Notes: generated by a model not told the origin, from the sequence alone. Positions 2,674 through 57,606 are shown, counted from the first letter of the stretch. The stretch: DNA of 64,000 nt from Lachnospiraceae bacterium (GCA_017469405.1 JAFUGL010000023.1:1111-65110), one strand, 5' to 3'. Made by a program: numbers and translations.

Positions 2674-2831
2674 ACGGTTCTCATTGACACACTTTACAAA
2701 CTTCCGACTTTGTATAAAATGTACACGCATGGCACGTTGACACTTAACGCCATGCTTAGCACATTTTTTTACAAAGTCTGCTATAGTTCATAGTATAAAA
2801 ATGTGTCAATGAGAACCGTCCATATGACACA
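2674..2831. repeat. REPIN-like long palindrome, copy 1
   Basis: Perfect 18-bp inverted arms ACGGTTCTCATTGACACA (2674-2691 / 2802-2819) around a shared core at 2721-2762 (reverse complement GTGCTAAGCATGGCGTTAAGTGTCAACGTGCCATGCGTGTAC). Confidence 0.85.
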
Positions 2832-2987
2832 CGAATTAACTTTACAAGAAGACTATAACATGCAAATTATTAAATAATAATTAAATGAGAAAAATGAGCA
2901 AAAAAATACTTCTTTGGAAGAATATACATTATACTTCCAAAGAAGTAATCACATCAATAAAACATCCATTAAAGAACCTGTTCTATA

Positions 2988-3941
2988 TTAGCTTACCACA
3001 TTTTCTTTTCGACCTTCCGTAAATGCCTTAAAATTATTTGCCACGATATCGACAAGTCTCTTTCTTGCATCGACACTTGCCCATCCCATATGCGGGGTAA
3101 AGGTTATATTGGGTGCGTCAAGCAAAGGATTATCTTCTTTCATCGGTTCAACCGAAACAACATCCACACCTGCTGCCGCAACCTTGCCACTCTTAAGCGC
3201 CAAAGCTAAATCGGCTTCATCGACAAGACCGCCACGACTTACATTTATTATAATCACTCCATCCTTCATCTTGTTAATATTGGACTTATTAATTATCTTT
3301 TCAGTATCAGAGGTTAGCGGGCAATGAAGTGATACTATATCCGCCTGGGAAAGCAAAGTATCAATATCCACAAATTGAACCTTATCATCCGTGTATTTTT
3401 CCGGATGTGCCGTATTTACAAGAACATTCATATTAAATGCCTTTGCGATTTCACAAACTCTTCTTCCTATATTTCCGTAGCCGACAACCCCTATGGTTTT
3501 TCCTGCAAGCTCAGTTACGGGAGCAAGCCAGTAGCAAAATATTTCCGACTTAATCCAATCACCGTTATGCACACTCTCATTATGTCTGCTTATATGGCAA
3601 ACCGATTCAAGAATAAGTCCCCAGGTAAGCTGGGCAACCGAATCCGTACTGTATGCCGGAACATTTGTAACCGTTACATTGTGCCTTTTTGCCGCCTCTA
3701 TATCAATCACGTTATAGCCTGTTGCACAGACACCGATATAGCGGATGTTTGGACACCTCTCAAACACTTCCTCATCCATTTTTATTTTATTAACAAATAA
3801 AATATCAGCATCTCCTATATGCTCATACTTATCCTGCTCGGTTGTATTTGCATATATCTTTGTATCAATAAGCTTCGTCAACGGTTCCCACGAAAGGTCA
3901 TTGTGATTAACCGCATCACCCTCAAGCAAAACTGCTTTCAT
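2988..3941 (-). CDS. D-2-hydroxyacid dehydrogenase (glycerate dehydrogenase-like)
   Basis: GVVGYGNIG NAD-binding motif, INVSRG, TPHMGW. Start set at MKAVLL after a GGAGG RBS. Confidence 0.9.
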   Translation of the reverse strand: MKAVLLEGDAVNHNDLSWEPLTKLIDTKIYANTTEQDKYEHIGDADILFVNKIKMDEEVFERCPNIRYIGVCATGYNVIDIEAAKRHNVTVTNVPAYSTDSVAQLTWGLILESVCHISRHNESVHNGDWIKSEIFCYWLAPVTELAGKTIGVVGYGNIGRRVCEIAKAFNMNVLVNTAHPEKYTDDKVQFVDIDTLLSQADIVSLHCPLTSDTEKIINKSNINKMKDGVIIINVSRGGLVDEADLALALKSGKVAAAGVDVVSVEPMKEDNPLLDAPNITFTPHMGWASVDARKRLVDIVANNFKAFTEGRKENVVS

Positions 3942-4019
3942 ACAAATATCCTCCAATTATTTCTTTATTTCAAACTTAGCCCGCACATCAGACTGTCTGT
4001 TCCCATGTTAAATATAAGG

Positions 4020-5144
4020 TTATTCTTTTTCCATACTTTTCCAGTAGCTGTGGAGCATAATAAATATAATGAACACATAAATTACAGTTATCGCTATATT
4101 TACATACATCAATTCGCGGAAGACTATCATAAATGCCACAAAGGTTATAATTAAAACCGCCGTATTTATCCAGAATCTCTTATCCGGTCTAAGCCTTTCC
4201 TTCGCATATCTGCCGGTTGCAAAAAGGAATATATAATAAAGTAAAAATGAACCGGTTAAAAATAACGTTTTCGGCATCAAATCAACCTCTTCCTCGCGCA
4301 TAAACTCAAGAGCGGTTGTTATATTATTTAATGCAAATATGATAAACACATGAAGCATCATATAACCTGTTCCGTTGGTAGTCATTTCACGGTCAATCAG
4401 ATGGTCGTATATCGTACCGTAGCAAAGGAAAAGACCGACTACAATCAAAAATCCCATTATAGAAAAATAAATTGTATTAAATCCTATCTCGCCTTCAAAA
4501 TAACCCGAAACGGCAATTATCATTTCACCAAAAGTAAATACCACATAAAGCATCGCTCTTTCCGTTAAGTGCGCAAAATCAACCGTCACAAGGCTGTTAA
4601 TCCTTCCTGAAAGAGAGGTTGCAACTATACCAAACAAAATCGGAAGTGCCGCAATCGCAACTCCTGTTATATGATAAACAGGTATAGAAACAAACACCAT
4701 AATTGCTTCTATAAAAATGATAATCATACTTCTTCTTATCTGCACCGTCTCCCATGGTGCCTTTCTTCTGCATTTATTAAATTCGATAAAATACTGCAAG
4801 CATATATTTAACAGAATCAGTCCCCACGCGACATTGTATCTGTTGAAATGAGTCTGCCAGTGAATCCTTGTTCCATCCGCCATGTAGTACAAAAGGTACA
4901 TATTTATAAACAGAAAAATATGATCTCTTAACCCGTTTGTACCGTATCTGTTTATGTAAAAGGTTGTAAAATTCCATATCTGTATAATCGCAAGCGTACA
5001 AAGGACATATGTTAAAAATATTTCTCCCGAAACAAACCCATCCTCCACATGATGAAGTAAAGAATTATTGCGACCGATAAGATATACAAATATCAAATCA
5101 TATATAAGCTCCAGATATTCAACTTTCTTTTCTTCCTTTTCCAT
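4020..5144 (-). CDS. Low temperature requirement protein A (LtrA) family membrane protein
   Basis: LELIYDLIFV N-terminal motif, HLTERAMLYVVFTFGE motif, multiple TM helices. Confidence 0.85.
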   Translation of the reverse strand: MEKEEKKVEYLELIYDLIFVYLIGRNNSLLHHVEDGFVSGEIFLTYVLCTLAIIQIWNFTTFYINRYGTNGLRDHIFLFINMYLLYYMADGTRIHWQTHFNRYNVAWGLILLNICLQYFIEFNKCRRKAPWETVQIRRSMIIIFIEAIMVFVSIPVYHITGVAIAALPILFGIVATSLSGRINSLVTVDFAHLTERAMLYVVFTFGEMIIAVSGYFEGEIGFNTIYFSIMGFLIVVGLFLCYGTIYDHLIDREMTTNGTGYMMLHVFIIFALNNITTALEFMREEEVDLMPKTLFLTGSFLLYYIFLFATGRYAKERLRPDKRFWINTAVLIITFVAFMIVFRELMYVNIAITVIYVFIIFIMLHSYWKSMEKE

Positions 5145-5158
5145 TTTCGCCTCCTATG

Positions 5159-5190
5159 ATGTGACACAGTAACAAACAAAATTGTCACAT
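5159..5190. repeat. Short REP-like hairpin (TGTGWCA family)
   Basis: ATGTGACA...TGTCACAT arms, same end motif as the larger palindromes. Confidence 0.5.
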
Positions 5191-5304
5191 AGCTACATTA
5201 TTATCTTGCGTCATTTTATCATAATTTTAAACATTAAGAAATATTTAAAAATGCATTTTTAAAAAATGAAGAAATAGAGCTGTTATTTATATCTAGCAAC
5301 ATAT

Positions 5305-5973
5305 TCAAATTGGATACTTGACACTTTTTATCGAATATGCTATCGTACTATTGAAGTTGATGAATGTGGTCGCCTTGGGGAAATCTCCCCCTATGGAAAG
5401 ACACAATTCATCAACTTTTTCTATATTTACTGCTATTATGTAATCTTTTTTTATACATTGATTAATATACTCTTTTAATCCTTCTCTTCCATACATACTT
5501 GCTATACAATTATTTTTTTTAATTCGGCCAAAATTGTTTAACCTAATAAAGACAAAAATATATCTTCCGTCATTATCTATTTGATCCGTCATAACAGCTA
5601 AAGTATTCTTGGATGATCCTTTTAGGACCATTAAAGGTCTTTTAAAAGCCCATAGTACATCCAATACTTGCTGTTTAGTTAATCCATGTCCACTTTTCTT
5701 GGTTCTTTTCCCATTATTATCACGGATTTCAGGCATCATACACTTATCAATCACAGATTTTGATATAGTTAAATCAAGCTCTCCATAATCACAACATATT
5801 GATATAGCTTTAGGTGTTTTTCCAACCAATAATGGGCTGCTTGCAACCTTTTTATCTCCAAGAAGCAGTTTCTCAAAGCATTTTGAAAACTCTTTTTCTT
5901 CTTTTTTATTTTCATTTATATTATTAAGTTCATCCTCCGTAAAACCATTTATATACATAGAATCACAATCCAA
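5305..5973 (-). CDS. MuF-C-terminal / BECR-fold-like domain protein (putative RNase toxin)
   Basis: Pattern VGKTP...GHGLTK...RPLMVLK...NNCIASMYGR resembles the phage MuF_C domain as recalled; not searched. Confidence 0.55.
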   Translation of the reverse strand: MDCDSMYINGFTEDELNNINENKKEEKEFSKCFEKLLLGDKKVASSPLLVGKTPKAISICCDYGELDLTISKSVIDKCMMPEIRDNNGKRTKKSGHGLTKQQVLDVLWAFKRPLMVLKGSSKNTLAVMTDQIDNDGRYIFVFIRLNNFGRIKKNNCIASMYGREGLKEYINQCIKKDYIIAVNIEKVDELCLSIGGDFPKATTFINFNSTIAYSIKSVKYPI

Positions 5974-5988
5974 TCTTTTGAGGTGTAT

Positions 5989-6261
5989 TTATCCATTACC
6001 TTTAGATACAAATTTTATCTCTAAATCCATATCAAGTGCCATTGCTAATTTTAATAAAACTTCAATAGTCGGAACATTTATTTTTTTTTCAATCCTGACA
6101 ATATTAGTTCTTGCTATTCCGGTAATTTCAGCAATTTTTTCTTGAGAATATCCTTTTTCTTTTCTAATCCTTATGTACTGCTCAATAATATCATCTTTTG
6201 TTCTTTTTTTTTCTTCCTCAATAATAATATCTAAATTATTATTTTTTTTATAATATTCCAT
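5989..6261 (-). CDS. XRE-family HTH protein
   Basis: IRKEKGYSQEKIAEITGIARTNIVRIEK HTH motif. Start at MEYYKK after GGAGG. Confidence 0.9.
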   Translation of the reverse strand: MEYYKKNNNLDIIIEEEKKRTKDDIIEQYIRIRKEKGYSQEKIAEITGIARTNIVRIEKKINVPTIEVLLKLAMALDMDLEIKFVSKGNG

Positions 6262-6388
6262 GCGTCCTCCTATGTCTCCAATATTACGTATCACAAATTA
6301 TACGTATCATTATTATAACATATTTTTTAATTATGTAAATAAAAAAGAATACTTATTTAAAAAGTATCCTTTTTTATCAACTATTTAA

Positions 6389-7201
6389 TTATTTATCAAT
6401 ATTCTTATTCATGCTTCCCATCTTATATCCACCCAGATCAAGCGTTACATATGAGAAACCAAGCTCTTGAAAATAATTATTAATAAATTCAGAAATCTCC
6501 GGTCTGATTATTTTTTCAAAATCCTTCTTTTCAACCTCTATCCTCGCCATATCACCATGTATGCGGACGCGCATCTGCCTAAATCCAAGCTCCAAAAGCT
6601 TTTCCTCTGCCTTTTCCACCATACCGAGTTTTTCCTTTGTTATGGTTTCACCATATACAAATCTTGATGCCAAACACGCATAAGAAGGCTTGTCCCATGT
6701 AGGAAGATTAAGCTCCTTTGAAAGCTTACGTATATCATCTTTAGTAAGCCCTGCATATCTTAACGGACTTTTAATCTCAAGCTCGGCTACTGCCATAAGC
6801 CCGGGTCGGTAATCTCCTTCATCATCTACATTCGAACCCTCGACAACATATTCTATGCCACGCTCGGAGGCGATATCCTTTATTTTGGAAAAAAGATTTT
6901 TCTTACATAAGTAACATCTGTTTTTTGGATTTTTACAAAAACCGGGAACCGAAAGCTCATCCGTCTCCAAAACAATCTGCTCTATACCCTCTGCCTCACA
7001 AAAAGCCTTTGTCTCCTCAAGTTCCCTTGCCGGAAATGAGCAGGACTGCGCAGTTACCGCCACCGCCTTATCACCTAAAACAGCATGCGCTTCCTTTAAC
7101 AAAAAGGTCGAATCAACCCCCGATGAAAATGCAACCAAAACACTTCCAAGCTCACGTAGGTATTCTTCTAGCTTTTCTTTCTTTTTATATAATTCTTCCA
7201 T
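6389..7201 (-). CDS. larE: ATP-dependent sulfur transferase LarE
   Basis: PP-loop AFSSGVDS, RCYLCK, DYRPGL, PSYACLASRF; adjacent to larC and larB. Confidence 0.92.
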   Translation of the reverse strand: MEELYKKKEKLEEYLRELGSVLVAFSSGVDSTFLLKEAHAVLGDKAVAVTAQSCSFPARELEETKAFCEAEGIEQIVLETDELSVPGFCKNPKNRCYLCKKNLFSKIKDIASERGIEYVVEGSNVDDEGDYRPGLMAVAELEIKSPLRYAGLTKDDIRKLSKELNLPTWDKPSYACLASRFVYGETITKEKLGMVEKAEEKLLELGFRQMRVRIHGDMARIEVEKKDFEKIIRPEISEFINNYFQELGFSYVTLDLGGYKMGSMNKNIDK

Positions 7202-7296
7202 AAGTATCCCTTTCTTATATCAAACTTATATGTGACAAGTTTACGCTCCCATATTACAGTTGCGCCAAGACTCTTTCTCAAATAAACTAATATATG

Positions 7297-8634
7297 TCAC
7301 TCTTCAATCAGTTTCTTTACCTCTTCGATACCGATATTTTTCTCCCTTGCTATGCGTGCCAAATCTTCGTATTCATATTTGCATCTCTTAGCGCCATATC
7401 CTGATGATATTTTTTGCCTTACTTCGCCATAAGGAGTTTCCACAGACTCTATCCGGCGCTTCAACACATATCTCTTTGTCTCGGTCTCACGCACTCCGAT
7501 AGTTGTTGTATATTTAAATATCAGTTCAATCATTTTCTCTTTGATTTCTTCTTTGCACATAACCCAGATAAGGGTGCCCGGTCTTGATTTTTTCATACCG
7601 ATCGGAATAGTATAAACCTCAAGTGCACCGCCATCAAACAGCCTTTCTGTTGCAAAGCTTATTTCCTCCGCAGTCATATCGTCCACATTACAGGATAGCT
7701 CAAGAACAGTATCCGTCTTATCATCTGCTTCGCCCATCATAGCCCTTACACAGTTAGCTGCTTCAAAATCCTTTTTTCCCATTCCGTATCCGATAGCGTG
7801 TGTTATCATAACCGGCATCTCACCAAAACTGTCTGTAAAATATTTCAATAATGCAGCTCCGGTCGGAGTGCAAAGCTCTCCGTTTATCTTACCGCCATAA
7901 ATCGGTACATCCTTTAAAATATAAGCTGTTGCAGGTGCCGGTACCGGAAGTATGCCATGTGCACACTTTACCTGACCGCTTCCTACATGCACAGGTGATG
8001 TAACTATTCTTTCAGGCGCAAGCTCTTCCATAAGCATACATACCATCGTAACATCCGCAACTGCATCCATGGTTCCCACCTCGTGAAAATGTATCTCGGT
8101 AACAGGTCTTCCATGCGCATGACTTTCTGCTTCAGCAATCAATCCATACACAGCCAGTACGTCTTTTTTCACTTTATCAGAAATATTTAAACTATCAACA
8201 ATATGCTCTATATCGTGCATGCTTGCATGGTGATGATGACCATGTTCGTGATGATGTTCGTGTTCGTGCTCGTGTTCTCCATGCTCGTGGTAATGATGCT
8301 CGTGCACATGCACGCCATGTTCATGATGATGGTGTTCATGTTCCCCATGCTCATGATGGTGTTCATGATTTTCATGTTCATGATCATATTCTCCATGCTC
8401 ATGATGGTGTTCGTATATATTTTCATCTTCCTCGGAACCGTTCACCCTAACTGCGATATGTGTTCCTGTAATTCCACACTTCACAGAACTTTCCTTTTCA
8501 ACCACCACACCGGGTATTGAAAGAGAATTTATTTTATCTATAAATTTATCAGGTTCAGGCAGGAGCTCAACCAACGCTGCTGCAAGCATATCTCCCGCTG
8601 CACCCATACTGCAATCCAGATATAATGTTTTCAT
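7297..8634 (-). CDS. larC: Nickel insertase LarC, single ORF with His-rich region
   Basis: DCSMGAAGDM, IHFHEVG, CAHGILPVPAPAT, ELCTPTGAA and a long His/Glu tract. Confidence 0.95.
   Translation of the reverse strand: MKTLYLDCSMGAAGDMLAAALVELLPEPDKFIDKINSLSIPGVVVEKESSVKCGITGTHIAVRVNGSEEDENIYEHHHEHGEYDHEHENHEHHHEHGEHEHHHHEHGVHVHEHHYHEHGEHEHEHEHHHEHGHHHHASMHDIEHIVDSLNISDKVKKDVLAVYGLIAEAESHAHGRPVTEIHFHEVGTMDAVADVTMVCMLMEELAPERIVTSPVHVGSGQVKCAHGILPVPAPATAYILKDVPIYGGKINGELCTPTGAALLKYFTDSFGEMPVMITHAIGYGMGKKDFEAANCVRAMMGEADDKTDTVLELSCNVDDMTAEEISFATERLFDGGALEVYTIPIGMKKSRPGTLIWVMCKEEIKEKMIELIFKYTTTIGVRETETKRYVLKRRIESVETPYGEVRQKISSGYGAKRCKYEYEDLARIAREKNIGIEEVKKLIEE
8220..8412 (-). repeat. His/Glu-rich low-complexity coding repeat within larC
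   Basis: Iterated HEHHHEHG-like units. Confidence 0.85.
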
Positions 8635-8664
8635 CGTAAACCTCCAAATTAAATTCGTTTAACA

Positions 8665-8834
8665 TGTCATCAGAGACGATTCTCTCTGACACATTATATA
8701 TCATCATCCATTCTGTAAGACTGTATATAAAAATGTGCTTAGCATGGCGTTAAGTAACACGTGCCATGCGAGTACATTTATATATACTGTCGAAGCATAC
8801 AAAAATGTGTCAGAGAGAATCGTCCCTGATGACA
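8665..8834. repeat. REPIN-like long palindrome, copy 2 (between larB and larC)
   Basis: Perfect 21-bp arms GACGATTCTCTCTGACACATT (8675-8695 / 8804-8824), extendable to 8665/8834. Core GTGCTTAGCATGGCGTTAAGTAACACGTGCCATGCGAGTAC at 8735-8775. Confidence 0.85.
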
Positions 8835-8841
8835 CATTTGT

Positions 8842-9585
8842 TCACCTGTGGTTTATCATGCTTGCAAGATACCCTGCTCCAAATCCGTTATCGATATTTA
8901 CAACAGACACTCCGCTGGCACAGGAATTAAGCATAGATAATAACGCAGAAAGCCCTCCAAAGGATGCTCCATATCCGACACTTGTCGGTACTGCTATAAC
9001 CGGACAATCGCAAAGTCCTCCTACCACACTCGCTAAAGCACCTTCCATACCTGCAATTGCAATCACAACGCTCGCATCCATAAGTTCCTCCTTATACGCA
9101 AGCAGCCTGTGAATTCCTGCGACCCCGACATCATAGATTCTCGTCACCTCATTTCCAAGTGACTCGGCCGTGATGGCAGCCTCTTCTGCAACAGGTATGT
9201 CGCTTGTGCCCGCTGTCGCGACAACAATCTTTCCTAAACCGTCTGCCTTGTGAAATGTACCGTAAAATCCGATTCGTGCATCAGCATAATAGGTTATAGG
9301 ATAATTTTTTGATAAGTCTTCCGCCTTATCAGGTTCAATCCTGGTTATCAAGATCTTATCCTGTCCGTTTTCCTTCATCACATCAATAATGCCGCTTATC
9401 TGCTCACAAGTTTTTCCGGCTCCGTATATAACCTCCGGCACTCCCTGCCTTATCTTGCGATGATTATCAACCTTAGCATATTCTATATCAGTAAACGGTT
9501 CAACCTTTAACTTTAAAAGTGCCTCATCAACCGAAAGCACACCATTTTTTACATCCTCAAGTATACGCTTAGTCTCATTTATCAT
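8842..9585 (-). CDS. larB: Nickel-pincer cofactor carboxylase/hydrolase LarB
   Basis: PEVIYGAGKT, TAGTSDIPVAEEA, AGMEGALASVV, VPTSVGYG, VNIDNGFGA. Confidence 0.95.
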   Translation of the reverse strand: MINETKRILEDVKNGVLSVDEALLKLKVEPFTDIEYAKVDNHRKIRQGVPEVIYGAGKTCEQISGIIDVMKENGQDKILITRIEPDKAEDLSKNYPITYYADARIGFYGTFHKADGLGKIVVATAGTSDIPVAEEAAITAESLGNEVTRIYDVGVAGIHRLLAYKEELMDASVVIAIAGMEGALASVVGGLCDCPVIAVPTSVGYGASFGGLSALLSMLNSCASGVSVVNIDNGFGAGYLASMINHR

Positions 9586-18085: not shown

Positions 18086-18226
18086 GGTGTGAGCCTTGTC
18101 ACATCCAATTAGTATATAAGACTGTATAAAAAAATATGCAAAGCATGGCGTTGAGTATCACGTGCCATGCGTGCATATTTTTTTATACAGTCAAAGTATA
18201 TTAATATAGGTGACAAGGCTCACACC
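18086..18226. repeat. REPIN-like long palindrome, copy 3
   Basis: 17-bp arms GGTGTGAGCCTTGTCAC (18086-18102 / 18210-18226), inner 20-bp perfect IR (18120-18139 / 18173-18192), core GCATGGCGTTGAGTATCACGTGCCATGC. Confidence 0.85.
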
Positions 18227-21058: not shown

Positions 21059-21133
21059 GTAAGTAATCCTCCGCTAGTGTACTGTACATAATTATATAAT
21101 TATTTTATTTAACATTCAAGTAAGGTAAAAAAA

Positions 21134-21166
21134 ATGTGTCAACGAAGATTATCTCCGTTGACACAT
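21134..21166. repeat. REP-like hairpin, probable terminator of upp
   Basis: ATGTGTCAACG...CGTTGACACAT. Confidence 0.65.
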
Positions 21167-21174
21167 CTGTTAAA

Positions 21175-21807: not shown

Positions 21808-21884
21808 ATAAAACTTTCCTCCCCTTGTAAACTACAACTAATTATATACTTAAATTATTTTATATTCAAGTACAGCAAAGAAAA

Positions 21885-21913
21885 ATGTGACATGGTTTAT
21901 GTCCATGTCACAT
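21885..21913. repeat. REP-like hairpin downstream of the large adhesin gene
   Basis: ATGTGACATGG...CCATGTCACAT. Confidence 0.65.
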
Positions 21914-21930
21914 ATCTCAAAAATGAAAAA

Positions 21931-36392: not shown

Positions 36393-36398
36393 GGTCTG

Positions 36399-45016: not shown

Positions 45017-45328
45017 TTATGCACCTCCAACATACCGTATAATGTAAATATGTTTGATTGACCCTATCAGCAATTTATATACTTATATTCTTCTGTTTTA
45101 TAGTTTAATCTATGAAACATATTTCATCATATAATATAACACAAAATAATAATAACATAAAGTTAAATATAATATATTAAACTAGGTATTTTTTATTAAA
45201 TTTTGAATTTACAATCCACATCATTTCAGATTACATCATTAAAAAATCAACACATTAAATAACAATGTCCTCATCATATATATTTATCTAACAAAGAATG
45301 ATAATTTATCTTAATGTTATTTCAAATA

Positions 45329-45430
45329 TTAATTCATTATCTTCATTGTCGGGAAAAGAAGGACATCCCTAATCGCCGAACTATCTGTCAACAACATACA
45401 CGATCTATCAATTCCATACCCTATATCACC
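45329..45430 (-). pseudogene. Diverged duplicate of the lysS 3' end (att-like scar)
   Basis: Translates [33 protein letters not shown] vs lys[34 protein letters not shown]. Confidence 0.92.
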
Positions 45431-45539
45431 CTATTCAATCATAGTAATCATATCTATATGTAACAAAAAGCACCTGCAAAAAAACAAGTGCTTTTCATTT
45501 CTATTTACAGAAAGTATTTTCCTCAAAACACAGAAAGGT

Positions 45540-46439
45540 TCACATCCACATTTTGTTCTTATAACTCCATCGTTTATCGAAATATTCTTTTCTAAGTATG
45601 TTCAGATAGATTGGTTCAAGAAATACCACCAGCCTGTCCAGCATATCATCAAACAGCAAACCTGTTTCCTTCGCCGGATCAAACGCATTCCACAGGGTAT
45701 TCAATGCAGTATTGTTCTTAAAATCCGCAATTTCCTCAAAAACATCAGCCGATAATTTTCTGTTACGATGAGTCAATGTACTTTTAACCGCTTCTATAAG
45801 AACCATTCCTTCAAAATCAAATATCCCTGACAGATAATAAATGTCATAGAAATCCTTCATCCTGCTTGTTCCGGCCATTCTCTGAAGAATTGCATCAAAT
45901 TTTTCTGCAATAGTACTTTCCAACGAATAAGTGTATACCTCCGGAGAGGTAAAATCGGGTAATCTTGTAACAATTGACCTTTTAATCGGATTAGGTACGA
46001 TTACATCATCAATACCGATATCAATTAAAAACGGAATCCTCACCTTTCCTATACGTCCAATAAAATTAATTTTTACACCGGGATATTTTTTATCTAACGA
46101 TATATTCTCTGTTCCCAAAACCTCCAATGTTATAAAATCATTTCCCGTACTGACATTGCAGATTTCTCTCATTATCTGCTCTATGTTGTCCGGGTTTCCT
46201 TGCAGATTCCTTATCAAGAAATCAATATCTCTTGTCGGTCTTGAATCAAACTCCGTAAGTGTATATATAAACATTCCACCCTTCAAAATCAGGTTATTAT
46301 CATATTTGGAAAGGGATAATTTTCTCAAAAATTCTTCCTGTGCAAAGAGCTGAAGTACCATCTGAAACGGAATCCCCTCTTCTTTTGACTGATTTTTCAA
46401 TCTTGTCAGCACTGATGCCTCCATATTCTTTATAGCCAT
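45540..46439 (-). CDS. AbiEii nucleotidyltransferase toxin (type IV TA)
   Basis: LILKGG, RPTRDIDF, STIAEKF, SRMKDFYDI. Confidence 0.92.
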   Translation of the reverse strand: MAIKNMEASVLTRLKNQSKEEGIPFQMVLQLFAQEEFLRKLSLSKYDNNLILKGGMFIYTLTEFDSRPTRDIDFLIRNLQGNPDNIEQIMREICNVSTGNDFITLEVLGTENISLDKKYPGVKINFIGRIGKVRIPFLIDIGIDDVIVPNPIKRSIVTRLPDFTSPEVYTYSLESTIAEKFDAILQRMAGTSRMKDFYDIYYLSGIFDFEGMVLIEAVKSTLTHRNRKLSADVFEEIADFKNNTALNTLWNAFDPAKETGLLFDDMLDRLVVFLEPIYLNILRKEYFDKRWSYKNKMWM

Positions 46440-47023
46440 ACTCCCAGCACCTCCCTTACCTTCTTTTCCACATGAAGTAGCTTGGCATACTTCATTAGTC
46501 TTGCCGTTGCCTTATTCGGATCTTGGACATATCGTTGGATAGCTACATTGAAAACTTCTCCGTCAACTTTGTTCCTATGCAGAAGCAGATCACAAATTGT
46601 TCTTTCCCTATCATATATCTTGATAGGTTTCCCATCAATTTCAGTTTCTTCTATCCCAACCCGGTATCGATCATTCCGAATAAAGTGTGGCTTCACAATA
46701 GGATAATCTATATAGAATCTTGTTCTTGTACTCTTATTATCCACTGCCAGATGCCACGCTGCCGGAGTCCTGTCTGTGTAACCATAGTAATCCAATGCAC
46801 TTTCCATACAGATTACACCATCCGGAAATAGTGTAGTAATGATAGGAATGTCCGAAAAGGAATCTTCTCCTGAGTACTGATAATAGCCTCGTCTAATCTG
46901 CTCAATCTCACCATCTTCAAGCAATTGCTGAATTTTTTTATAATAAATGCCTTCCTCTTTAAGTTCAGAAGTTCTCATCAGACCACCATACATATCAAAA
47001 ATTTTTTTAATATTTTCATTCAT
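46430..47023 (-). CDS. AbiEi antitoxin / transcriptional regulator (type IV TA)
   Basis: IEQIRRGYY, ICMESALDYYG, IYDRERTICD; overlaps AbiEii. Start at MNENIK. Confidence 0.92.
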   Translation of the reverse strand: MNENIKKIFDMYGGLMRTSELKEEGIYYKKIQQLLEDGEIEQIRRGYYQYSGEDSFSDIPIITTLFPDGVICMESALDYYGYTDRTPAAWHLAVDNKSTRTRFYIDYPIVKPHFIRNDRYRVGIEETEIDGKPIKIYDRERTICDLLLHRNKVDGEVFNVAIQRYVQDPNKATARLMKYAKLLHVEKKVREVLGVWL

Positions 47024-47254
47024 AATACAATCCCTCTTTTTTATCATAATATACAATTTAATTATAGTTTTTGTATAGTTTGATAAATTAAGTATATCTG
47101 TTGTTTCGAAAAAAGTCAAGATAAACAGTCAACAGAGATAATAATTTCTGTTGGCAATTTTTTATAAAAATTGTTATATTTTTTAATTCTAAAAAAAGAC
47201 ACTTCTTAAATACTTAAGAAGTGTCCCATAATCATTTCATAATATTTCAATTTC

Positions 47255-51099: not shown

Positions 51100-51164
51100 A
51101 CTCTACCTTCTCCCATATACATTTCCTTTATTATTCATGTAAAGTCATTTCGATTCAATTATAC

Positions 51165-52616
51165 TTATATATTAACTATCTGATTTAAATCGTACAGCAA
51201 TAACCTGCTATCATTTTTTGCCTCTTCAATAATCTTTTTATCAAAGCCCGACTTGGAAAATAACACATAGTAAAAATCAGCTGTTTCCTTAAGGCTCATA
51301 AGCTTTGCCAATGTATCAAGATACTCAGAATAATTAAACTTTGTTTTCTTATACTTACATTCTCCAACGAGATATTCCTTTGCTTCTTTTCCTATTCCAA
51401 GCAAATCTATCTCTGTTTCCGATTCTCTAAAGCCGCTTGACGAACCACTGTCGCGAACAGTTGTTTTTCCCATCCATCTGCCAAGCTGAAGGTACCTGAA
51501 AGGCAATGCATTTTTCTTTTGAAGATTTTTTACAAACTCCTTGCATACATCCTCAAAAACATGTGATGCAAATTCATCAAGTGCAGGAGCAATCATATAA
51601 TCGTATACACCCTCAACATCTCCATCCTCAAGCTGAGAAATATTAACAAATCCAAATGTATACCAGAATCTGAAAAAGTTATCCGTCAAGCTATATGTTC
51701 CTCTGTTTGAATTCGCTTTTTCCTTATCTTTAGAGCCAACCGAAAATTCACGCATTACGATACCAAGTTCTATCAGATTTTTTAAATAGACACTGGTTTT
51801 TGATGTGTCCCCTACAAGAGATTTCTGACTTATATCATTAAGCTTTGTACTCCCAAGAGCGACCGCCTCGATAATAGCATTATAAATCGGCGTCTCCCGA
51901 AGTTCCTGATGAAGTAAGAAATCAACCTCACTGTACAATACCGAACCTTTAGACAAAATGTTTCTCTTTATATTATCAGCTACAGATATTTCAGGATTAA
52001 ACTGGCAAAGATAATGTGGTATACCACCAAGTATTGCATATGCCAATATCTTATCCTCATCAGAATAATTCGGAAAAAACCTGATAGCATCATAAAAGCC
52101 CATTTCAGTCATTTTATATATGCCGGTAGCTCTTCCATATAGTGGATTTTTCTCTGCAAGCAAGTCCTTTTCAATAAAACTCATCGCACTTCCACACAGC
52201 ACAATCATAACATTCTCATCTTTAAGCTCCGTATCCCAGAGATTTTGCAATATAGAAGGTATGCTTCTGTTACCTTTACACAAATAAGGAAACTCATCGA
52301 TTATAACTAATTTCTTTTTTTTGCCAAAAGGTAAATCCTTTAAAGAGCGAAAAGCTGTCTCCCAATCCGGAAAATCTGATATATATTTTTTAGCCGGAAT
52401 ATCTTCCTTAAATATCTGATTTGAAAACTTAGCAAGCTGTATTTTATCCGTACTTTGAGTACATGAATAAAAAATGTGTGGCTTTCCTTTACAAAATTCT
52501 CTTAAAGTTTCTGTTTTCCCAACACGACGCCTGCCATACAAAACAACAAGTTGTCCTTTTTTTTCACTATATTTATCATTAAGAAAAGATAGCTCTGATT
52601 CTCTTCCTATAAACAT
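51165..52616 (-). CDS. Archaeal-type ATPase with C-terminal DUF234 / PD-(D/E)xK domain
   Basis: MFIGRESEL, YGRRRVGKT, IIDEFPY, DNFFRFW, EIDL...VGECKY. Confidence 0.88.
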   Translation of the reverse strand: MFIGRESELSFLNDKYSEKKGQLVVLYGRRRVGKTETLREFCKGKPHIFYSCTQSTDKIQLAKFSNQIFKEDIPAKKYISDFPDWETAFRSLKDLPFGKKKKLVIIDEFPYLCKGNRSIPSILQNLWDTELKDENVMIVLCGSAMSFIEKDLLAEKNPLYGRATGIYKMTEMGFYDAIRFFPNYSDEDKILAYAILGGIPHYLCQFNPEISVADNIKRNILSKGSVLYSEVDFLLHQELRETPIYNAIIEAVALGSTKLNDISQKSLVGDTSKTSVYLKNLIELGIVMREFSVGSKDKEKANSNRGTYSLTDNFFRFWYTFGFVNISQLEDGDVEGVYDYMIAPALDEFASHVFEDVCKEFVKNLQKKNALPFRYLQLGRWMGKTTVRDSGSSSGFRESETEIDLLGIGKEAKEYLVGECKYKKTKFNYSEYLDTLAKLMSLKETADFYYVLFSKSGFDKKIIEEAKNDSRLLLYDLNQIVNI

Positions 52617-52637
52617 ATAAGTGCCTCCTATTTATTC

Positions 52638-52714
52638 AAATCGTAATTTACTAAATCGTGATTTGCTAAATCCTGATTTGAATAAATTATACATAATATT
52701 TACAGCTTTTTCAA
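52638..52714 (-). promoter_or_regulatory. Promoter plus three AAATC-NN-GATTT-type boxes at 15-bp period
   Basis: TTGAAA-17-TATAAT (52709-52714 / 52686-52691); boxes at 52638, 52653 and 52668 between the promoter and RBS. Confidence 0.55.
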
Positions 52715-52756
52715 GAGCTATTTGAAAAACGCCAATGTTTTTCATAATACTTTAAT

Positions 52757-53410
52757 TTACCTTCCCACAAGTGCCTTCGATACTTCAATAACGCCCTTAT
52801 GCTTTAGCTCTCTCGGTTCAAACTTTATAAGATAATACACAAGCTGCATCACAAGTCCCGCTCCAAATGTACTTATCAGAGTTCCTATACCTACCGAGCC
52901 TCCAAGCAGATACCCTGCCAGCAAAACCACAGCCCAAAGCATTACCTCAACTATGCCTATCGGGACCCTTGACATTCTCTTTCCGAGTCCTACCAAAAGC
53001 GCATCTCTCGGACCACAGCACTGCTCCGCACTCATGTATATCCACATTCCGATTGCCATAAACACAAATCCGACAAGCATTATAACAATTCCCAACCAGA
53101 GATTATTATTTTCAGGAAACGGATTGAGACTGTTATACATCTGCACAAAATTACCTGTAAGGAGTGCATCTATGATTGTTCCGTAGCCTATCTTTTCCTT
53201 GAGCAAAACATCTATCAAAAGAATAATCACTGCCATAATCGTCATGGAAATTCCATAATTAAACGGTGTATGCTTCGCCATACCCATCCCCAGGCAGTCC
53301 CATGGTGCAAGTCCGATATTGGCATATATCGTCATATGGACTCCCAATGCGAAAACCAGCAATCCTAACACAATTCTTATCCATTCCAAAAAAAGTCTTT
53401 TACGGGTCAT
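52757..53410 (-). CDS. YczE/YyaS/YitT family membrane protein
   Basis: ANIGLAPWD, EKIGYGTII, GPRDALLVG, VGIGTLI. Confidence 0.88.
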   Translation of the reverse strand: MTRKRLFLEWIRIVLGLLVFALGVHMTIYANIGLAPWDCLGMGMAKHTPFNYGISMTIMAVIILLIDVLLKEKIGYGTIIDALLTGNFVQMYNSLNPFPENNNLWLGIVIMLVGFVFMAIGMWIYMSAEQCCGPRDALLVGLGKRMSRVPIGIVEVMLWAVVLLAGYLLGGSVGIGTLISTFGAGLVMQLVYYLIKFEPRELKHKGVIEVSKALVGR

Positions 53411-54485
53411 TTTTCTGTTTTCTCCCTAACCGCAATCTTTTTGATTAATTTCAGAACATATTTTGTCAATAGCTTAACCAAGAATGCAACAATTATTATA
53501 ACTATAAACTGGTATAAAAACATTAGCAAAATCATATATTTGTTTACATACCATTTTGAAAGCCATGAACCCATATCAAGAATTATGAAATGATGTACCA
53601 GCAATACTTCATAAGAAACACTACTCAAAAAATCAAGTATTCTTAATTTGTATTTTTTCAACAATTCTTCAAAAAACGAACATGATACAAAAAAGGCAAC
53701 TGAAGCCATCGTAATTTTCAACGCCACATTGATATTAAGCGCACTTTTACTGACAATAAAATATACCAGAACAGGAAATGAAACATACATACATTTAGAA
53801 GGAAATCTCTTAAAATATCTTCCAAAATACATTCCCAATATAAATTCGCAGCCCTTGATTATCAAATTCTCCCAAAGCGGCACCTTAAAACTTATGCCAC
53901 TATATGCGGTAATTACATAAACGCACGCTGAAACGACAAAAAATATCTTAGGATATTTATCCATAAAAAATTTAAATACCGGAAACAGTACATACAAGAT
54001 AATTATCGCGCCTAGAAACCATTCGCCTATTGCCTTATAAAATGTAGGAACTTTGTGTATCGCGAGCCAACCGTCAATACCAAGAAATGAATAAATAAAT
54101 CTCCATCTTGGAATGTCAGGAAGTCTATGCCTTTTAATTTGATCCAAAGATACACATATAAAAGAATATTAACTATATAAAACGAAGGCATCAGTCTTAT
54201 AAATCTTTTCTTGTAAAAACTTTTCACACTGTATGATTTATCAGCACTTGTAATAAGTCCCGCACCTGAAAGAATAAAAAATACAGAAACAGAAAGGGTT
54301 GCTATATGCATATTTGGATTTTGAAAATAAACAGCAACCTCTCCAAAAGTATAAACGCCACTTGAATATAGGTACACAAGCATATGATAAAGCACAATCA
54401 ACCCAAAGGATATCACCCTTATCAAGTCATAGTATCTATATCTTTCCGTATCTTTAACATTATCTTTCTTTAATAACGAACTCAT
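53407..54485 (-). pseudogene. Acyltransferase family 3 (OafA-like), frameshifted near 54120
   Basis: N-half has DLIRVIS, FFILSG, KRFIRL; C-half has EWFLGAII..YVLFP, SYEVLLVH. The frames join at ...GIDF / PDIPRW with one base missing. Confidence 0.8.
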
Positions 54486-54522
54486 AAAAACCTCTTTATC
54501 ACTGTTAATCATATATGCACGT

Positions 54523-54559
54523 AAAAAGTGTGTCAAAATAAAATTATGACACACTTTTT
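54523..54559. repeat. REP-like hairpin / terminator after purH
   Basis: AAAAAGTGTGTCA...TGACACACTTTTT. Confidence 0.65.
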
Positions 54560-54563
54560 TTGA

Positions 54564-55742: not shown

Positions 55743-55799
55743 AGTTTCCTCCTATAATTTACGAGAATAAGTAATTGTGAAACATCTACTGTTTCGAAG

Positions 55800-55935
55800 A
55801 TTGTATCAAATAACCAGTTCCAACGCAAACACGTTCTCACTCGGCTTTCGACGTAGCGGTACTAAGTTCGATAATACCTCACTAAGTACTGACGTCTCAA
55901 GACGGTTTGCTTATGGAACTGTTATTTAATACAAT
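55800..55935. repeat. Long imperfect palindrome sharing the TAA-GC / GC-GT internal loop with the REPIN-like family
   Basis: Minus strand ...CAGTTCCA-TAA-GCAAAC...GTTTGC-GT-TGGAACTG... Confidence 0.6.
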
Positions 55936-55963
55936 CAGCCATATTTTTTGCTATGTTTCACAA

Positions 55964-56677
55964 TTACTTATTCTTATTTACTATCCTTGTCTCATATTTA
56001 CCTGTTGCGATATCTATGAATCGCACAAATAAAGATACTTTATTGTCTTCGTTTAAGCTTGTCCATACCTCGTCTGTGAAGGTGTCGATATCGCCTGATA
56101 TTTTTACCCACTTTGGCTCGCCTTCAAAGCTTGGGAGTGGATTGCCGTCGTGCATATATGTATGGATGAAATGTCCCTCACCTGCTACAGGGTTTTGATA
56201 TGCAAAAGTGTATCTGTTGCATGCATCAGGATTTCCGTTATTGCTCTTTAATATTGACATGGCATAGTTAAAGTTACCGCCTTCAACATGCATTATTCCT
56301 GAAATTCTAGGTGTATAATTAGGACCGTCCGGCTCGAACTCACGTGAACGAAGTGACTGTTCAAAAGTGCTCTGCTTGTCCATGCCTTCATAGATTGTAT
56401 CTGTCTGATCTCCGTTTGTAACTATGGTCTTATTGCCAAGTACTCTAACAGGTGCGTAAATTATAAGACTTGGATCCTCAAGCTTGGAAGGATCAAAGGC
56501 TTCGGTACGGATACCTTCTCCTTCTTCCACAAATACTCTGTTTCTGCTGTTTGAACTTCTACCCATTATGAAGTATGCGGTTACAGCCTTTGTACCGTCC
56601 TCGGAAACTCCGATTACAATACCTCTTCCCGGATAAGCGTTCTCCTTTAATTCATTTGCAAGTGATAACATTTCCAT
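55964..56677 (-). CDS. IMP cyclohydrolase (PurO-like)
   Basis: YPGRGI, YFIMGRSSNSRNR, NGDQTD, FEPDGPNYTPRI; upstream of purH. Confidence 0.88.
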   Translation of the reverse strand: MEMLSLANELKENAYPGRGIVIGVSEDGTKAVTAYFIMGRSSNSRNRVFVEEGEGIRTEAFDPSKLEDPSLIIYAPVRVLGNKTIVTNGDQTDTIYEGMDKQSTFEQSLRSREFEPDGPNYTPRISGIMHVEGGNFNYAMSILKSNNGNPDACNRYTFAYQNPVAGEGHFIHTYMHDGNPLPSFEGEPKWVKISGDIDTFTDEVWTSLNEDNKVSLFVRFIDIATGKYETRIVNKNK

Positions 56678-56785
56678 CAAAAAAACCTCCATATTCTATC
56701 TTGTATATAAATCAGCAGCCTGTGCTGTTTTTATCTTTTGCTTTATTCATAAACCGACCGGTAATAATCATCATATATAATTAAT

Positions 56786-57499
56786 TTATTGGTCACTATC
56801 CTTAATGATATCTCCACCCTGGTCATTGGTTACATCACCGCTTTGGTCAAGCGGAATCTTATCACCAAGAAATGTGGGTTTGAATTTAAAGATTGACCAG
56901 ATAAAATCCTTGTCAACCGCAACTATCTCTCTTAAATCCCTTTTGGTCTGTCCGTGATATCTCTCATCTTTAGCTGCCACGCCGTACGAATCCATTCCAA
57001 GACTTTTTGCAACATATACCGAACGGTACAGATGATATCTCTGTGTCACGATAACAACCTTTTTTGCACCAAATATCTCCTTAGCCCTATACATAGTATC
57101 ATAGGTGGAAAATCCGGCATGATCCATAAATATATCTTCTGAAGGAACCCCTGCCTTAATCGCATAATCCTTCATGACCTGAACCTCATTATAATATTTG
57201 CTGCCATGGTCGCCGCTCATAATAATCTTAGGCGCCACACCTGCCTTATATAACTCAATCGCCCTGTCCAGTCTGTCAGAAAGCATAAGGCTTGGAGTAT
57301 TGCCGTGCTTAACAGAAGCACCCAGCACGATAATACAGTCCACATCAGTAAGGTCTGCCGCCTCATCAGCATCAATTATTCTGTTTTTTGTACTAAGTCT
57401 CACATACGCATTTATACCTACAGTAAAAAGAACTACCGCAAGCACAATAACACCAATCAAAATAGCAAATATCTTAATAATCTTTTTAAAAGTCTTCAT
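56786..57499 (-). CDS. SanA/YdcF (DUF218) family protein
   Basis: IIVLGA, DRLDRA, IIMSGD, DHAGFSTYDT, VTQRYHLYR. Confidence 0.88.
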   Translation of the reverse strand: MKTFKKIIKIFAILIGVIVLAVVLFTVGINAYVRLSTKNRIIDADEAADLTDVDCIIVLGASVKHGNTPSLMLSDRLDRAIELYKAGVAPKIIMSGDHGSKYYNEVQVMKDYAIKAGVPSEDIFMDHAGFSTYDTMYRAKEIFGAKKVVIVTQRYHLYRSVYVAKSLGMDSYGVAAKDERYHGQTKRDLREIVAVDKDFIWSIFKFKPTFLGDKIPLDQSGDVTNDQGGDIIKDSDQ

Positions 57500-57526
57500 A
57501 CAAAATCCTACACCAATATACTTGGC

Positions 57527-57606
57527 GGACTGTGTGATAGGACAGGTGCTAAGCATAGCGTTAAGTGCCAACGTGCTATGCGTGCACCTGTCCTATCATA
57601 CAGTCC
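57527..57606. repeat. REPIN-like palindrome, copy 4
   Basis: 23-bp arms with one G-T pair; core GTGCTAAGCATAGCGTTAAGTGCCAACGTGCTATGCGTGCAC. Confidence 0.85.

Follow-up and report, generated by a model that had tools for sequence, protein, structure and literature searches.

The 64,000-nt stretch of Lachnospiraceae DNA analysed here (the window) contains four intergenic copies of an imperfect palindrome that share the core GCATRGC-GTTRAGT-N3-4-ACGT-GCYATGC (Table 1). Copy 1 lies in the spacer between a 2-hydroxyacid dehydrogenase gene and an FtsX permease gene, copy 2 between larB and larC, copy 3 between convergent genes, and copy 4 between glgB and DUF218. All four copies claimed in the initial annotation were recovered as exact matches (0 expected) by a pattern search that allowed a gap of 2-6 nt, and none of 100 dinucleotide-preserving shuffles of the window matched. 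The R/Y positions co-varied perfectly in 45/45 copies seen, even though all four combinations were permitted in the search, and the compensatory swap described for copy 4 was present. The scaffold carries a fifth core copy as well, approximately 6 kb upstream of where the window starts.

Table 1. Palindromic elements and U units in the window
Feature	Position	Strand	Details
Copy 1, composite	2654..2839	-	core 2727-2755; inner arms and core module 2706-2778; inverted-repeat arms 2654-2695 / 2798-2839
Copy 1, outer U-type arms	2674-2695 and 2798-2832		TGTGTCAATGAGAACCGTCCATATGACACAC
Copy 2, composite, 181-nt block	8660..8840	+	core 8742-8769; high-copy module 8718-8791
Copy 2, outer U-type arms	8665-8695 and 8804-8834		inverted repeat, complementarity 97%
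Copy 3, composite	18086..18226	+	core 18143-18170, variant GTTGAGT; inner arms 18120-18140 / 18172-18192, complementarity 100%
Copy 3, outer arms	18086-18102 / 18210-18226		GGTGTGAGCCTTGTCAC; U class I; complementarity 100%
Copy 4, subfamily B	57527..57606	+	core 57553-57581; GCATAGC/GCTATGC, 4-nt loop; arms 57527-57549 / 57584-57606, complementarity 96%; family-conserved part 57541-57590, remaining stem locus-specific
Stand-alone U unit, TGTGACA-N16-TGTCACA	5160..5189	.	upstream of LtrA-like gene
74-nt insertion with degenerate U unit (ATATGTGACAAGTTTACGCTCCCATATTACA)	7223..7296	.	larC-larE spacer; missing in RUG10816
Stand-alone hairpin, TGTGTCAACGAAGAT-T-ATCTCCGTTGACACA	21129..21171	-	terminator-like for upp gene
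Stand-alone hairpin, TGTGACATGG-N7-CCATGTCACA	21880..21918	-	terminator-like for SpaA/TQ adhesin gene
Stand-alone hairpin, AAAAAGTGTGTCA-N11-TGACACACTTTTT	54523..54559	-	downstream of AICARFT gene
Sister element "cargo 3"	55764..55974	.	IMP cyclohydrolase-AICARFT spacer; conserved multi-copy centre 55817-55920; perfect 22-nt arms 55764-55785 / 55953-55974

What defines the family is an asymmetric hairpin of 46-48 nt, (A)GGTGCTWA-GCATRGC-GTT-AAGT-loop-ACGT-GCYATGC-GWGYACC(T), which folds into a 7-bp stem with a 3x2 internal loop below it, a GTT bulge of three bases, and a short helix further in that closes a tri- or tetraloop. Among 40 distinct copies, 98% of the cells were paired and both sides had changed in 11 of the 18 pairs; no shuffle of 500 reached these values, and slid controls were 18-53% paired. 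The stem occurred as GCATGGC/GCCATGC, GCATAGC/GCTATGC, and GCAAATC/GATTTGC, and a T-A pair was replaced by C-G in three copies. G.U-compatible pairs were found on one module strand only (pair 12-50: GC 20, GU 16, AC 0). Beyond the tip, the stem sequence is either common to a subfamily or unique to its locus. Subfamily A, to which the mutually homologous inner arms (~20 nt) assign copies 1-3, has a 20-nt A/T-rich arm and forms composites of ~150-180 nt that end in GTGWCA U units; subfamily-B copies, such as copy 4, are without U units. An arm search bore out the inverted repeats reported within each of the four copies. The accompanying claim that the outer arms differ between copies needs refinement: those of copies 1 and 2 are homologous to each other, as are the inner arms in copies 1-3.

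Rfam covariance models gave no hits in the window at the gathering score, only generic long-hairpin (miRNA precursor) matches to copy 2 below threshold, and no relevant hits at loci with sister elements; the comparison with Rfam that had been suggested earlier therefore matched no described ncRNA in either set. An intrinsic (Rho-independent) terminator stands at operon ends and combines a G+C-rich stem of 5-12 bp and a small loop with a T-run downstream. We rejected this identity for the family, as copies 1, 2, and 4 are without a downstream T-run in gene orientation and lie within operon spacers. A terminator scanner picked out nothing but sub-hairpins within the elements. Flanking A-runs and T-runs do occur at some subfamily-B copies at other loci (L010, L024).

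Six hairpins of the form GTGWCA-N5-30-TGWCAC were counted in the window, where 0.19 would be expected, and those near 5160, 21136, 21887, and 54530 stand alone, as the initial annotation had noted. Its description of these units as interchangeable arms of the core family has to be abandoned: the U units are a separate REP-like module, which also flanks two other palindrome families. They bound three different palindrome centres and also occur singly or as a tandem pair. At the ends of composites, the units are ~30 nt long and inverted, with two TGWCAC boxes each, and their loop sequences are alike within a copy and different between copies. Judged by sequence, the stand-alone hairpins at 21129, 21880, and 54523 look like terminators, the first because an A-run precedes it and, on the minus strand, a T-run follows. 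U hairpins mark the ends of several differences in gene content between relatives: 5158-6398 begins at the 5160 unit, which is the edge of a 1.2-kb cassette missing in RUG13380, and 51135-54550 and 53414-54563 end at the 54523-54559 hairpin, a boundary of differences from RUG13380 and bin.107. In the sister element cargo 3, the arm at 55953-55974 includes the final 11 nt, stop codon among them, of the upstream IMP cyclohydrolase gene; therefore, the opposite arm is an inverted duplicate of the host flank. This is the one firm case of flank copying.

The core is lineage-restricted: rumen Lachnospiraceae gave 41 exact matches, spread over five GTDB species (17, 11, 9, 3, and 1 per MAG), and none was found outside them among 185,579 species. 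One true core match was found in the JGI metagenomes, and the core was absent from viral, plasmid, and phage collections. In gut metagenomes, the depth of the core was 40-100x that of its flanks; it reached 1814 against 19-24 at copy 3 (run X1), and the copy 2 module stood at ~40x flank depth. At copy 4, other metagenome contigs matched the family-conserved part only, at ~15x flank depth. Copies are located just past stop codons and ahead of the next RBS inside operons (larB-larC-larE, glgB-DUF218, and purine genes). Relative to genes, 16 cores were co-oriented and 9 anti-oriented, with no significant bias, and convergent gene pairs were enriched and divergent pairs depleted (11 vs 3). No common motif was detected in the flanks of 45 copies.

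Orthologous intergenic spacers differed in whether they contained a whole element. Copy 1 has orthologs in RUG13380 (L016/L170) and bin.107 (L038), is decayed in RUG14549 (L185), and is missing from RUG10816 (L171), where the remnant is a stretch resembling the distal right arm only. Clean empty sites for copy 2 were found in RUG10816 (L171: cacaggtg/ttaaacgaattt) and RUG13380 (L016/L170), and comparison of the filled and empty alleles (cacaggtg/.../ttaaacg vs cacaggtg/ttaaacg) revealed no target duplication at this one clean junction. Metagenome contigs also omit 8654-8840, and one other has 16 nt replacing 8634-8848. At the copy 3 site, bin.107 (L040) carries a subfamily-B copy with unrelated arms; at the copy 4 site, relatives carry a different palindrome of ~330 nt (L042-L044, L046) or a plain hairpin (L045); and RUG10816 and bin.107 have a core-family copy in the spacer that holds cargo 3 in the window. 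The glgB-DUF218, larB-larC, and purine-operon spacers each contain different elements in different relatives, the same spacers having been repeatedly colonised by the core family and by two sister families that also have the U units. Fixation at orthologous positions, against which the family was to be checked, was not what we found, as copies 1 and 2 are missing in relatives. Several element-less alleles (L043, L171, and L143, the last with a symmetric central loss) are best read as deletions. All of these differences were seen between species or strains, with no de novo insertion observed within one strain.

Strain variants at L022 carried mirrored substitutions (3243-3245 / 3304-3306) and mirrored 1-nt deletions (3248 / 3301), and L027 and L250 differed by three mirrored pairs; the arms thus co-evolve within a copy, as had been supposed. 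In orthologous copies, substitutions affected 4/361 paired arm positions vs 77/814 adjoining unpaired positions (1% vs 9.5%, ~9x slower; p = 6e-9). The retained hairpins are therefore under strong purifying constraint, which is more readily reconciled with a host function than with pure selfishness.

The earlier statement that the window encodes no transposase was borne out: none of the ORFs compared with Pfam or NCBIfam was one, and a motif scan for RAYT/IS200 likewise found none. No transposase was found near any copy in the window, 10 kb upstream of it, or ~0.6 Mb of related loci, and a motif scan (Y..NP[VLIM] plus HUH) detected no Y1/RAYT gene in 1.18 Mb of fetched loci (~10-15% of each MAG). 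On balance, we regard the four copies as probably representing lineage-specific, small, non-coding interspersed palindromic repeats, non-autonomous and organised as a REP/BIME-like mosaic. Mobility in trans and an HUH/single-stranded DNA step are inferred: the mobile form would be hairpin DNA, folded and single-stranded, and the enzyme acting on it would recognise the asymmetric tip, the leading candidate being a transposase of the Y1 HUH/RAYT type. Against this reading stand the lack of a significant orientation bias, which single-strand transposons of the IS200/IS605 kind usually show strongly, and the purifying constraint on orthologous arms. RAYT group 1 occurs in Clostridia (PMC5581495), and REPs nested in palindromes have precedent (PMC3733652). 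The stems would stay complementary by arm-to-arm templated copying, selection for pairing, or both, and such copying may occasionally lengthen them into the host flank. Where copies have been retained within operons, they probably serve as mRNA hairpins between cistrons, or are tolerated in that capacity. Of the initial reading as a mobile palindrome family, the multi-copy, lineage-restricted, non-coding, and gained-or-lost character stands; a purely selfish reading would not predict the constraint on retained copies.

A more tentative proposal, which we hold to be possible though rather doubtful, is that these are "tip-defined" mobile hairpins, in which the asymmetric apical module is the element and the stem is either built from host DNA by fold-back, inverted copying of the flank or acquired when the module inserts at the apex of existing hairpins; the unit that moves later would be the hairpin at the size it had reached by then. 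If true, this would explain the conserved tip within locus-specific, perfectly paired stems, as well as the U-unit pairs round three unrelated centres and the spread of composites as blocks. To our knowledge, no structure-defined, self-palindromising repeat has been described in bacteria.

It is unlikely, in our estimation, that the copies are primarily host cis-regulatory RNA stem-loops acting between cistrons or at 3' ends on mRNA stability, processing, or termination, as in selective RNA processing and stabilisation, with their spread incidental. The slow evolution of the paired arms, the positions between stop codons and the next RBS, the excess of convergent over divergent gene pairs, and the restriction of G.U-compatible pairs to one strand all agree with such a role, and intercistronic stem-loops set operon stoichiometry in Clostridia (PMC4423207, PMC8219983, PMC9045158). 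The module was also present in one metatranscriptome contig, although its depth was low and DNA carry-over is possible. However, copies commonly lie in either orientation to transcription, very close relatives have no element or another family in the same operon spacer, and no T-run follows 3/4 window copies in the transcribed direction; moreover, an identical 46-nt tip at >40 unrelated loci requires a copying mechanism in any case. A cis-regulatory role is compatible with the mobile, REP/BIME-like reading as a secondary, exapted role.

The long inverted ends of the composites recall classical double-stranded MITEs, in which a DDE transposase encoded at another locus would recognise the U units as TIRs and the centres would be passengers, and it is consistent with this that one U type bounds three different centres and that composites come and go as blocks. 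We consider this assignment improbable: the one clean junction, that of copy 2, is without a target-site duplication, subfamily-B copies are dispersed without U units, the U loops match within a copy and differ between copies, unlike a single transposase-binding TIR, and 0/23 U loci contained a full-length element bearing a transposase. Recombination sites for gene cassettes, attC-like or other, with the palindromes as cassette boundaries, seem highly improbable, although gene-content differences do end at U hairpins and the folded palindromes have conserved unpaired bases. The attC site has conserved R''/L''-L'/R' boxes at its base, a variable centre, and an adjacent integrase and cassette array. 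In contrast, the conserved part here is apical, the R''/R' consensus (RYYYAAC / GTTRRRY) is missing at the hairpin base, and the window contains no integron integrase or other recombinase; most copies lie in housekeeping operons, and boundaries in intergenic terminators are expected by chance. The attC identity was accordingly rejected.

Among known small repeats, ERIC, Correia/NEMIS, RUP, and BOX elements are likewise long hairpins of 80-180 nt that are intergenic, co-transcribed, and variable between strains; however, they are conserved over their full length with defined TIRs and usually a TA or other target duplication, whereas here 46-48 nt are conserved family-wide and the one clean junction has no duplication. 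The IS200/IS605-derived PATEs share with the present family an asymmetric bulged hairpin of the kind read by HUH enzymes, the lack of a target duplication, and a module strand that folds better than the other. We rejected this assignment because in PATEs the left and right ends form separate hairpins on one strand and a fixed 4-5-nt target lies beside the left end, and IS200/IS605 single-strand transposons usually show a strong strand bias; the family has a single palindrome per element, no common flanking motif, and no such bias. Intrastrand templated synthesis and hairpin processing yield mirrored changes, inverted flank copies, and central loss. Such quasipalindrome template-switching or palindrome revision, known from E. 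coli and yeast, parallels the mirrored substitutions and indels in both arms, the arm copied inversely from adjoining host sequence, and the symmetric loss at L143; it accounts for the upkeep and growth of stems but not for an identical tip at >40 loci.

The closest likeness is to REP, BIME, and REPIN sequences, which are also short, high-copy, narrow-lineage intergenic imperfect palindromes located after genes and inside operons; they too are found singly, in inverted pairs, and in mosaics with further motifs, vary in presence between relatives without target duplication, and have conserved unpaired bases in the hairpin. In the REPIN/REP-RAYT system, a single-copy Y1 (HUH) RAYT gene is flanked by the repeats, and the hosts are Proteobacteria (Enterobacteria and Pseudomonads), whereas the host here belongs to Lachnospiraceae and no RAYT gene was found in the loci scanned. 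REPs carry a terminal tetranucleotide, GTAG, or CGTC in a second superfamily (PMC3733652); alignments of the family copies showed neither GTAG/CTAC nor CGTC/GACG conserved at the module or composite ends. The U-unit pairs resemble inverted REP doublets, with loops that differ from copy to copy. The REPIN-like architecture originally proposed does not apply: a REPIN conserves two REP stems around a variable spacer, whereas in this family it is the tip that is conserved, the stem being for the most part locus-specific. The family is a new REP/BIME-like mosaic repeat system of an uncultured rumen Lachnospiraceae clade in which, unusually, only the hairpin tip is conserved.

A pattern search allowing for a variable loop returned exactly four matches to the core, GCATRGC-GTTRAGT-N3-4-ACGT-GCYATGC, in the window, and none of 100 dinucleotide-preserving shuffles of the window contained a match. 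The search thus recovered the four copies proposed in the initial annotation, and an inverted-repeat finder recovered their arms at the coordinates first proposed, with 96-100% complementarity in copies 2-4. A fifth core copy is located about 6 kb upstream of the window, which is part of scaffold_523 in the ENA assembly ERZ28654170 (ruminant gut metagenome). An exact scan of one genome per species (185,579 species) revealed 41 core loci, all of them in rumen MAGs: 17 in RUG10816, 11 in ERR1278103_bin.107 (hereafter bin.107), 9 in RUG13380, 3 in RUG14549, and 1 in RUG10802. Relaxed core scans yielded 0 true members among viral contigs and one among JGI metagenome contigs, the remaining matches in both being rejected because they lacked the left stem, and a blastn search of plasmids and phages with the module (the 46- to 48-nt asymmetric hairpin around the core) gave chance matches only. 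In public gut metagenomes containing the organism, the depth of the core was 40-100x that of single-copy flanks (191 vs. 4.5, 1989 vs. 20, and 1814 vs. 19-24). Together, the locus counts and depth ratios put the core family at tens of copies per genome, all within a narrow clade. Logan short-read contigs broke within the elements.

Alignment of all copies defined two subfamilies. Subfamily A combines GCATGGC with a 3-nt loop (ANC) and arms of sequence GACTGTATAAAAAATGTGC, and subfamily B combines GCATAGC with a 4-nt loop (GNYA) and with (A)CAGGTGC adjoining the core. Read alignment placed the common stretch of subfamily A at about 74 nt (8718-8791) and that of subfamily B at only about 46-48 nt (57541-57590), outside which metagenome contigs diverged in both subfamilies. 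The conserved tip, the module end of the hairpin, is asymmetric. Its three-helix structure was 98% paired over 40 distinct copies, and 11 of the 18 pairs were changed on both sides; none of 500 shuffles reached the observed level, and slid controls were 18-53% paired. The 7-bp stem took the forms GCATGGC/GCCATGC and GCATAGC/GCTATGC, plus GCAAATC/GATTTGC at locus L148 of the relatives. The closing pair changed from T-A to C-G in L044 and in both tandem copies of L162, which favors a 5' GTT bulge in the structure over the alternative 3' GT bulge. Pair 12-50 occurred 20 times as G-C, 16 times as G.T, and never as A.C, indicating that the module is asymmetric and that one strand is the better folder. 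As ssDNA, both strands folded well, the top strand better by 0.8-2.7 kcal/mol. The tandem core copies at L162 (4505-4654) are separated by ~100 nt; both have a stem of their own and a compensated C-G closing pair, and an RNase P RNA gene is located ~1 kb away.

Other readings of the core were considered. A K-turn at the 3x2 internal loop was ruled out, since most copies lack the G.A/A.G tandem. A dif/Xer-like interpretation of the 28-nt core (11-6-11) was also rejected because the variable bases act as a hairpin loop and the palindrome is formed by the outer, not the inner, bases of the core. The likeness to ssoA CS-6 (TAGCGT) is a coincidence, the setting here being chromosomal, multi-copy, and operon-internal. 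The core family, the U units (GTGWCA/TGWCAC repeats), and the sister palindrome centers cargo 2 and cargo 3 match no Rfam family; searches of the window at the gathering score, of copy 2 by E-value, and of the sister-element loci returned nothing specific.

In copies 1-3, the outer arms consist of U units of the form GTGWCA-(GGGGCGTGAGCC, GGGACAGGCACC or GAGAACCGTCCC)-TGWCAC, which are a module separate from the core. Six GTGWCA-N5-30-TGWCAC hairpins were found in the window against 0.19 expected, and the stand-alone hairpins that had been noted initially were confirmed. A scan for one U variant added 23 loci in the same clade, including the additional MAG RGIG5011. The elements are mosaics with U units: inverted U pairs surround three distinct conserved centers, namely the core, cargo 2, and cargo 3. 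Single U units are located directly upstream of genes at L142, L165, and L167, and L029 contains a 65-nt tandem U pair that L025 lacks.

Coordinates and properties of features in the window and of the sister centers
Feature	Location	Strand	Remarks
Copy 1	2654-2839	-	Core match 2727-2755
Copy 2	8660-8840	+	Core match 8742-8769
Copy 3	18086-18226	+	Core match 18143-18170
Copy 4	57527-57606	+	Core match 57553-57581
Stand-alone GTGWCA hairpins	near 5160, 21136, 21887, 54530
Degenerate U copy	7223-7296		Missing in RUG10816
Cargo 2			~150-nt center; e.g., L030, L149, L155, L166
Cargo 3	55764-55974		~100-nt center, also at L138, L143, L158; in the window, multi-copy 104-nt center, depth about 8x flanks, located between IMP cyclohydrolase-like and AICARFT genes
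Palindrome, 28 nt	52630-52687		15-nt repeats (AAATCGTGATTTGCT); directly upstream of ATPase_2/DUF234 gene; shares word GATTTGCTAAATC with cargo 2; probably an operator
larB-larC-larE operon	6389-9585		Nickel-pincer cofactor synthesis; palindromic repeats in both intercistronic spacers
His-rich tandem repeats of larC	8230-8384
Two-gene cassette	5158-6398		HTH_3 protein (5989-6294), MuF_C-domain protein (5305-5973)
Large SpaA / T-Q ester-bond domain surface proteins	21931-25863, 28936-30810		Pilin or adhesin type; internal 36-nt and 45-nt tandem repeats
Defence-island-like stretch	31657-47119		Includes large protein with Type I R-M S (Methylase_S) domain
ParE/Phd pair	36517-37105
PLD-ResIII-helicase-DUF3427 protein	38333-41329
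Two unannotated ORFs	41999-44074, 44339-45016
AbiEii/AbiEi pair	45540-47119
Region with no ORF listed	60630-64000		Likely a long + strand gene running past the window end; base skew sign change at about 60500

Comparison of orthologous spacers showed that the elements are gained and lost as blocks without target duplication. With a slash marking the junction, the copy 2 site reads cacaggtg/ttaaacgaattt in RUG10816 (L171) and cacaggtg/AACAAATGTGTCATCAG...CTGATGACATG/ttaaacgaattt in the window; relative to L171, copy 2 is a clean 181-nt block whose junction has no duplication. This site is also empty in RUG13380 and is occupied by a cargo-2 element in bin.107, and among metagenome contigs, one skips 8654-8840 and another has 16 nt replacing 8634-8848. 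In RUG14549 (L185 4668-4950), an array of ~11-nt units (AGCTACAGATA / AGCTATAGATA) fills the larB-larC spacer at the position of copy 2. Copy 1 is common to the window, RUG13380, and bin.107, is decayed in RUG14549 (GCATAGCTTGAGCGATAGCGAGATATG), and is missing from RUG10816, where only a stretch resembling the distal right arm is left. The copy 4 site contains a U-cargo2-U composite of ~330 nt in four relatives and a plain hairpin in one. At the copy 3 site, where the flanks are 79% identical, the copy in bin.107 (L040 6485-6640) belongs to subfamily B and its arms are unrelated to those in the window; this may reflect either an independent insertion or a stem replacement. The purine-operon spacer (55754-55964) is empty in RGIG3763 and contains cargo 3 in the window, a core-family copy in RUG10816 and bin.107, and a 26-nt remnant in RUG13380. 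The operon settings include larB-copy 2-larC-U-larE, glgB-DUF218, and the IMP cyclohydrolase-AICARFT pair; copies 1, 2, and 4 sit within operons and have no T-run in the direction of transcription. The alternative raised in the initial annotation, that the copies are ordinary terminators fixed at orthologous positions, is contradicted by this gain and loss and by the missing T-runs of copies 1, 2, and 4. The two-gene cassette of the window is also present in RUG10816 and missing from RUG13380, and a different one (an HTH protein and a 217-aa protein) adjoins the copy 1 site in bin.107 (L038 738-2144) and RUG14549 (L185); both look like mobile pairs of the toxin-antitoxin type.

The stems are concerted and constrained. 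In strain variants of L022, changes at 3243-3245 are accompanied by mirror-image changes at 3304-3306, and 1-nt deletions are likewise mirrored (3248 and 3301), showing that the two arms of a copy co-evolve. A second L022 strain group has 2/3 of the mirrored substitution pairs, and L027 differs from its orthologue upstream of the window by three mirrored pair differences. Across five independent orthologous species pairs, substitutions were found at 4/361 paired arm positions vs. 77/814 neighboring unpaired positions (Fisher p = 6e-9) and at 3/143 core positions. Mismatches in the outer stem were strand-symmetric (16 G.T vs. 10 A.C, not significant); the excess of G.T over A.C (39 vs. 1) lay wholly within the 9 positions adjoining the core and is inherited module design. 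The mismatch spectrum did not depend on gene orientation, and the strand test did not separate RNA, ssDNA, and dsDNA readings of the stems.

One stem arm was copied from host DNA. The cargo-3 element of the window has perfect 22-nt arms, consisting of AGAATAAGTAATTGTGAAACAT and the complementary sequence. In AGAATAAGTAATTGTGAAACAT, the initial 11 nt coincide with the end of the IMP cyclohydrolase gene (final codons plus stop), a stretch conserved in every relative, and the other 11 nt are spacer; the empty allele of the site reads AGAATAAGTAATTGTGAA/TTATAGGAGG. The gene end in one arm and the empty allele sequence together indicate that the other arm is an inverted duplicate of the host flank. 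Independent assemblies from three samples span this structure, and in a scan of about 70 loci, it was the only case (55764/55953) of arms overlapping ORF ends. In bin.107 L143, a cargo-3 palindrome lacks precisely its middle 89 nt, which leaves a perfect 24-bp hairpin; the missing 89 nt are present in RUG14549 L138 and in the closest relative, L158, whose flanks show 95% identity.

An in-situ origin of the elements by snap-back only, without transposition, was ruled out by the identical 46-nt tip at >40 unrelated loci. The idea that the stems generally arise by flank copying was also rejected: L043 (site X) and L171 (copy 1 site), each of which retains the distal part of one arm alone, are partial deletions by species parsimony. 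We consider it rather improbable that the family is a tip-defined hairpin element with a stem made from host DNA. The elements are probably non-autonomous and moved in trans; an asymmetric bulged hairpin tip is the kind of substrate read by single-strand HUH (Y1) transposases. Element orientation showed no strong strand bias. RAYT group 1 is known from Clostridia (PMC5581495). No Y1/RAYT-type transposase gene was seen in the window ORFs, 10 kb of upstream sequence, or about 0.6 Mb of related loci, and a RAYT motif scan was negative. Templated copying from one arm to the other would account for the U pairs as well as for the host-derived arm and the mirrored variants. The 9-fold lower substitution rate would additionally require selection for pairing, which points to a role as an intercistronic hairpin, or at least to a cost of disruption. 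Intercistronic stem-loops are a determinant of operon stoichiometry in Clostridia (PMC4423207, PMC8219983). None of the RNA runs contains the lar locus, and one low-depth metatranscriptome contig with the module was not informative.

To our knowledge, almost all work on REP-type repeats, and on domesticated transposases as their possible partners, has been done in Proteobacteria. The uncultured rumen Lachnospiraceae clade has an abundant, well-delimited system of three center families with a shared REP-like unit, which turns over fast at the same operon spacers, yet whose retained copies are strongly constrained. The system provides a handle on two questions: by what means palindromic repeats maintain complementary arms, with selection and arm-to-arm copying as candidates and the host-derived arm and mirrored strain variants as concrete examples, and whether repeats of this type behave selfishly, have been exapted, or combine the two. 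In practical terms, the repeats fragment short-read assemblies of these genomes, which bears on MAG quality in rumen studies.

The elements could not be assigned to DDE-type MITEs, IS200/IS605 PATEs, attC sites, or intrinsic terminators. The closest known systems are REP/BIME and REPINs, which have in common with the present family abundance, intergenic position, mosaicism, lineage restriction, and the absence of target duplication; REPs nested within larger palindromes have already been described (PMC3733652). However, the stems are conserved in a REPIN, whereas the tip is conserved here, and the GTAG/CGTC tag of REPINs is absent. The REPIN-like reading of the initial annotation is partly supported: it holds for a lineage-specific, non-coding repeat family with gain and loss of copies and fails for the REPIN architecture and tag. 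The system is one of real, non-coding, lineage-specific mosaic repeats of the REP/BIME kind.
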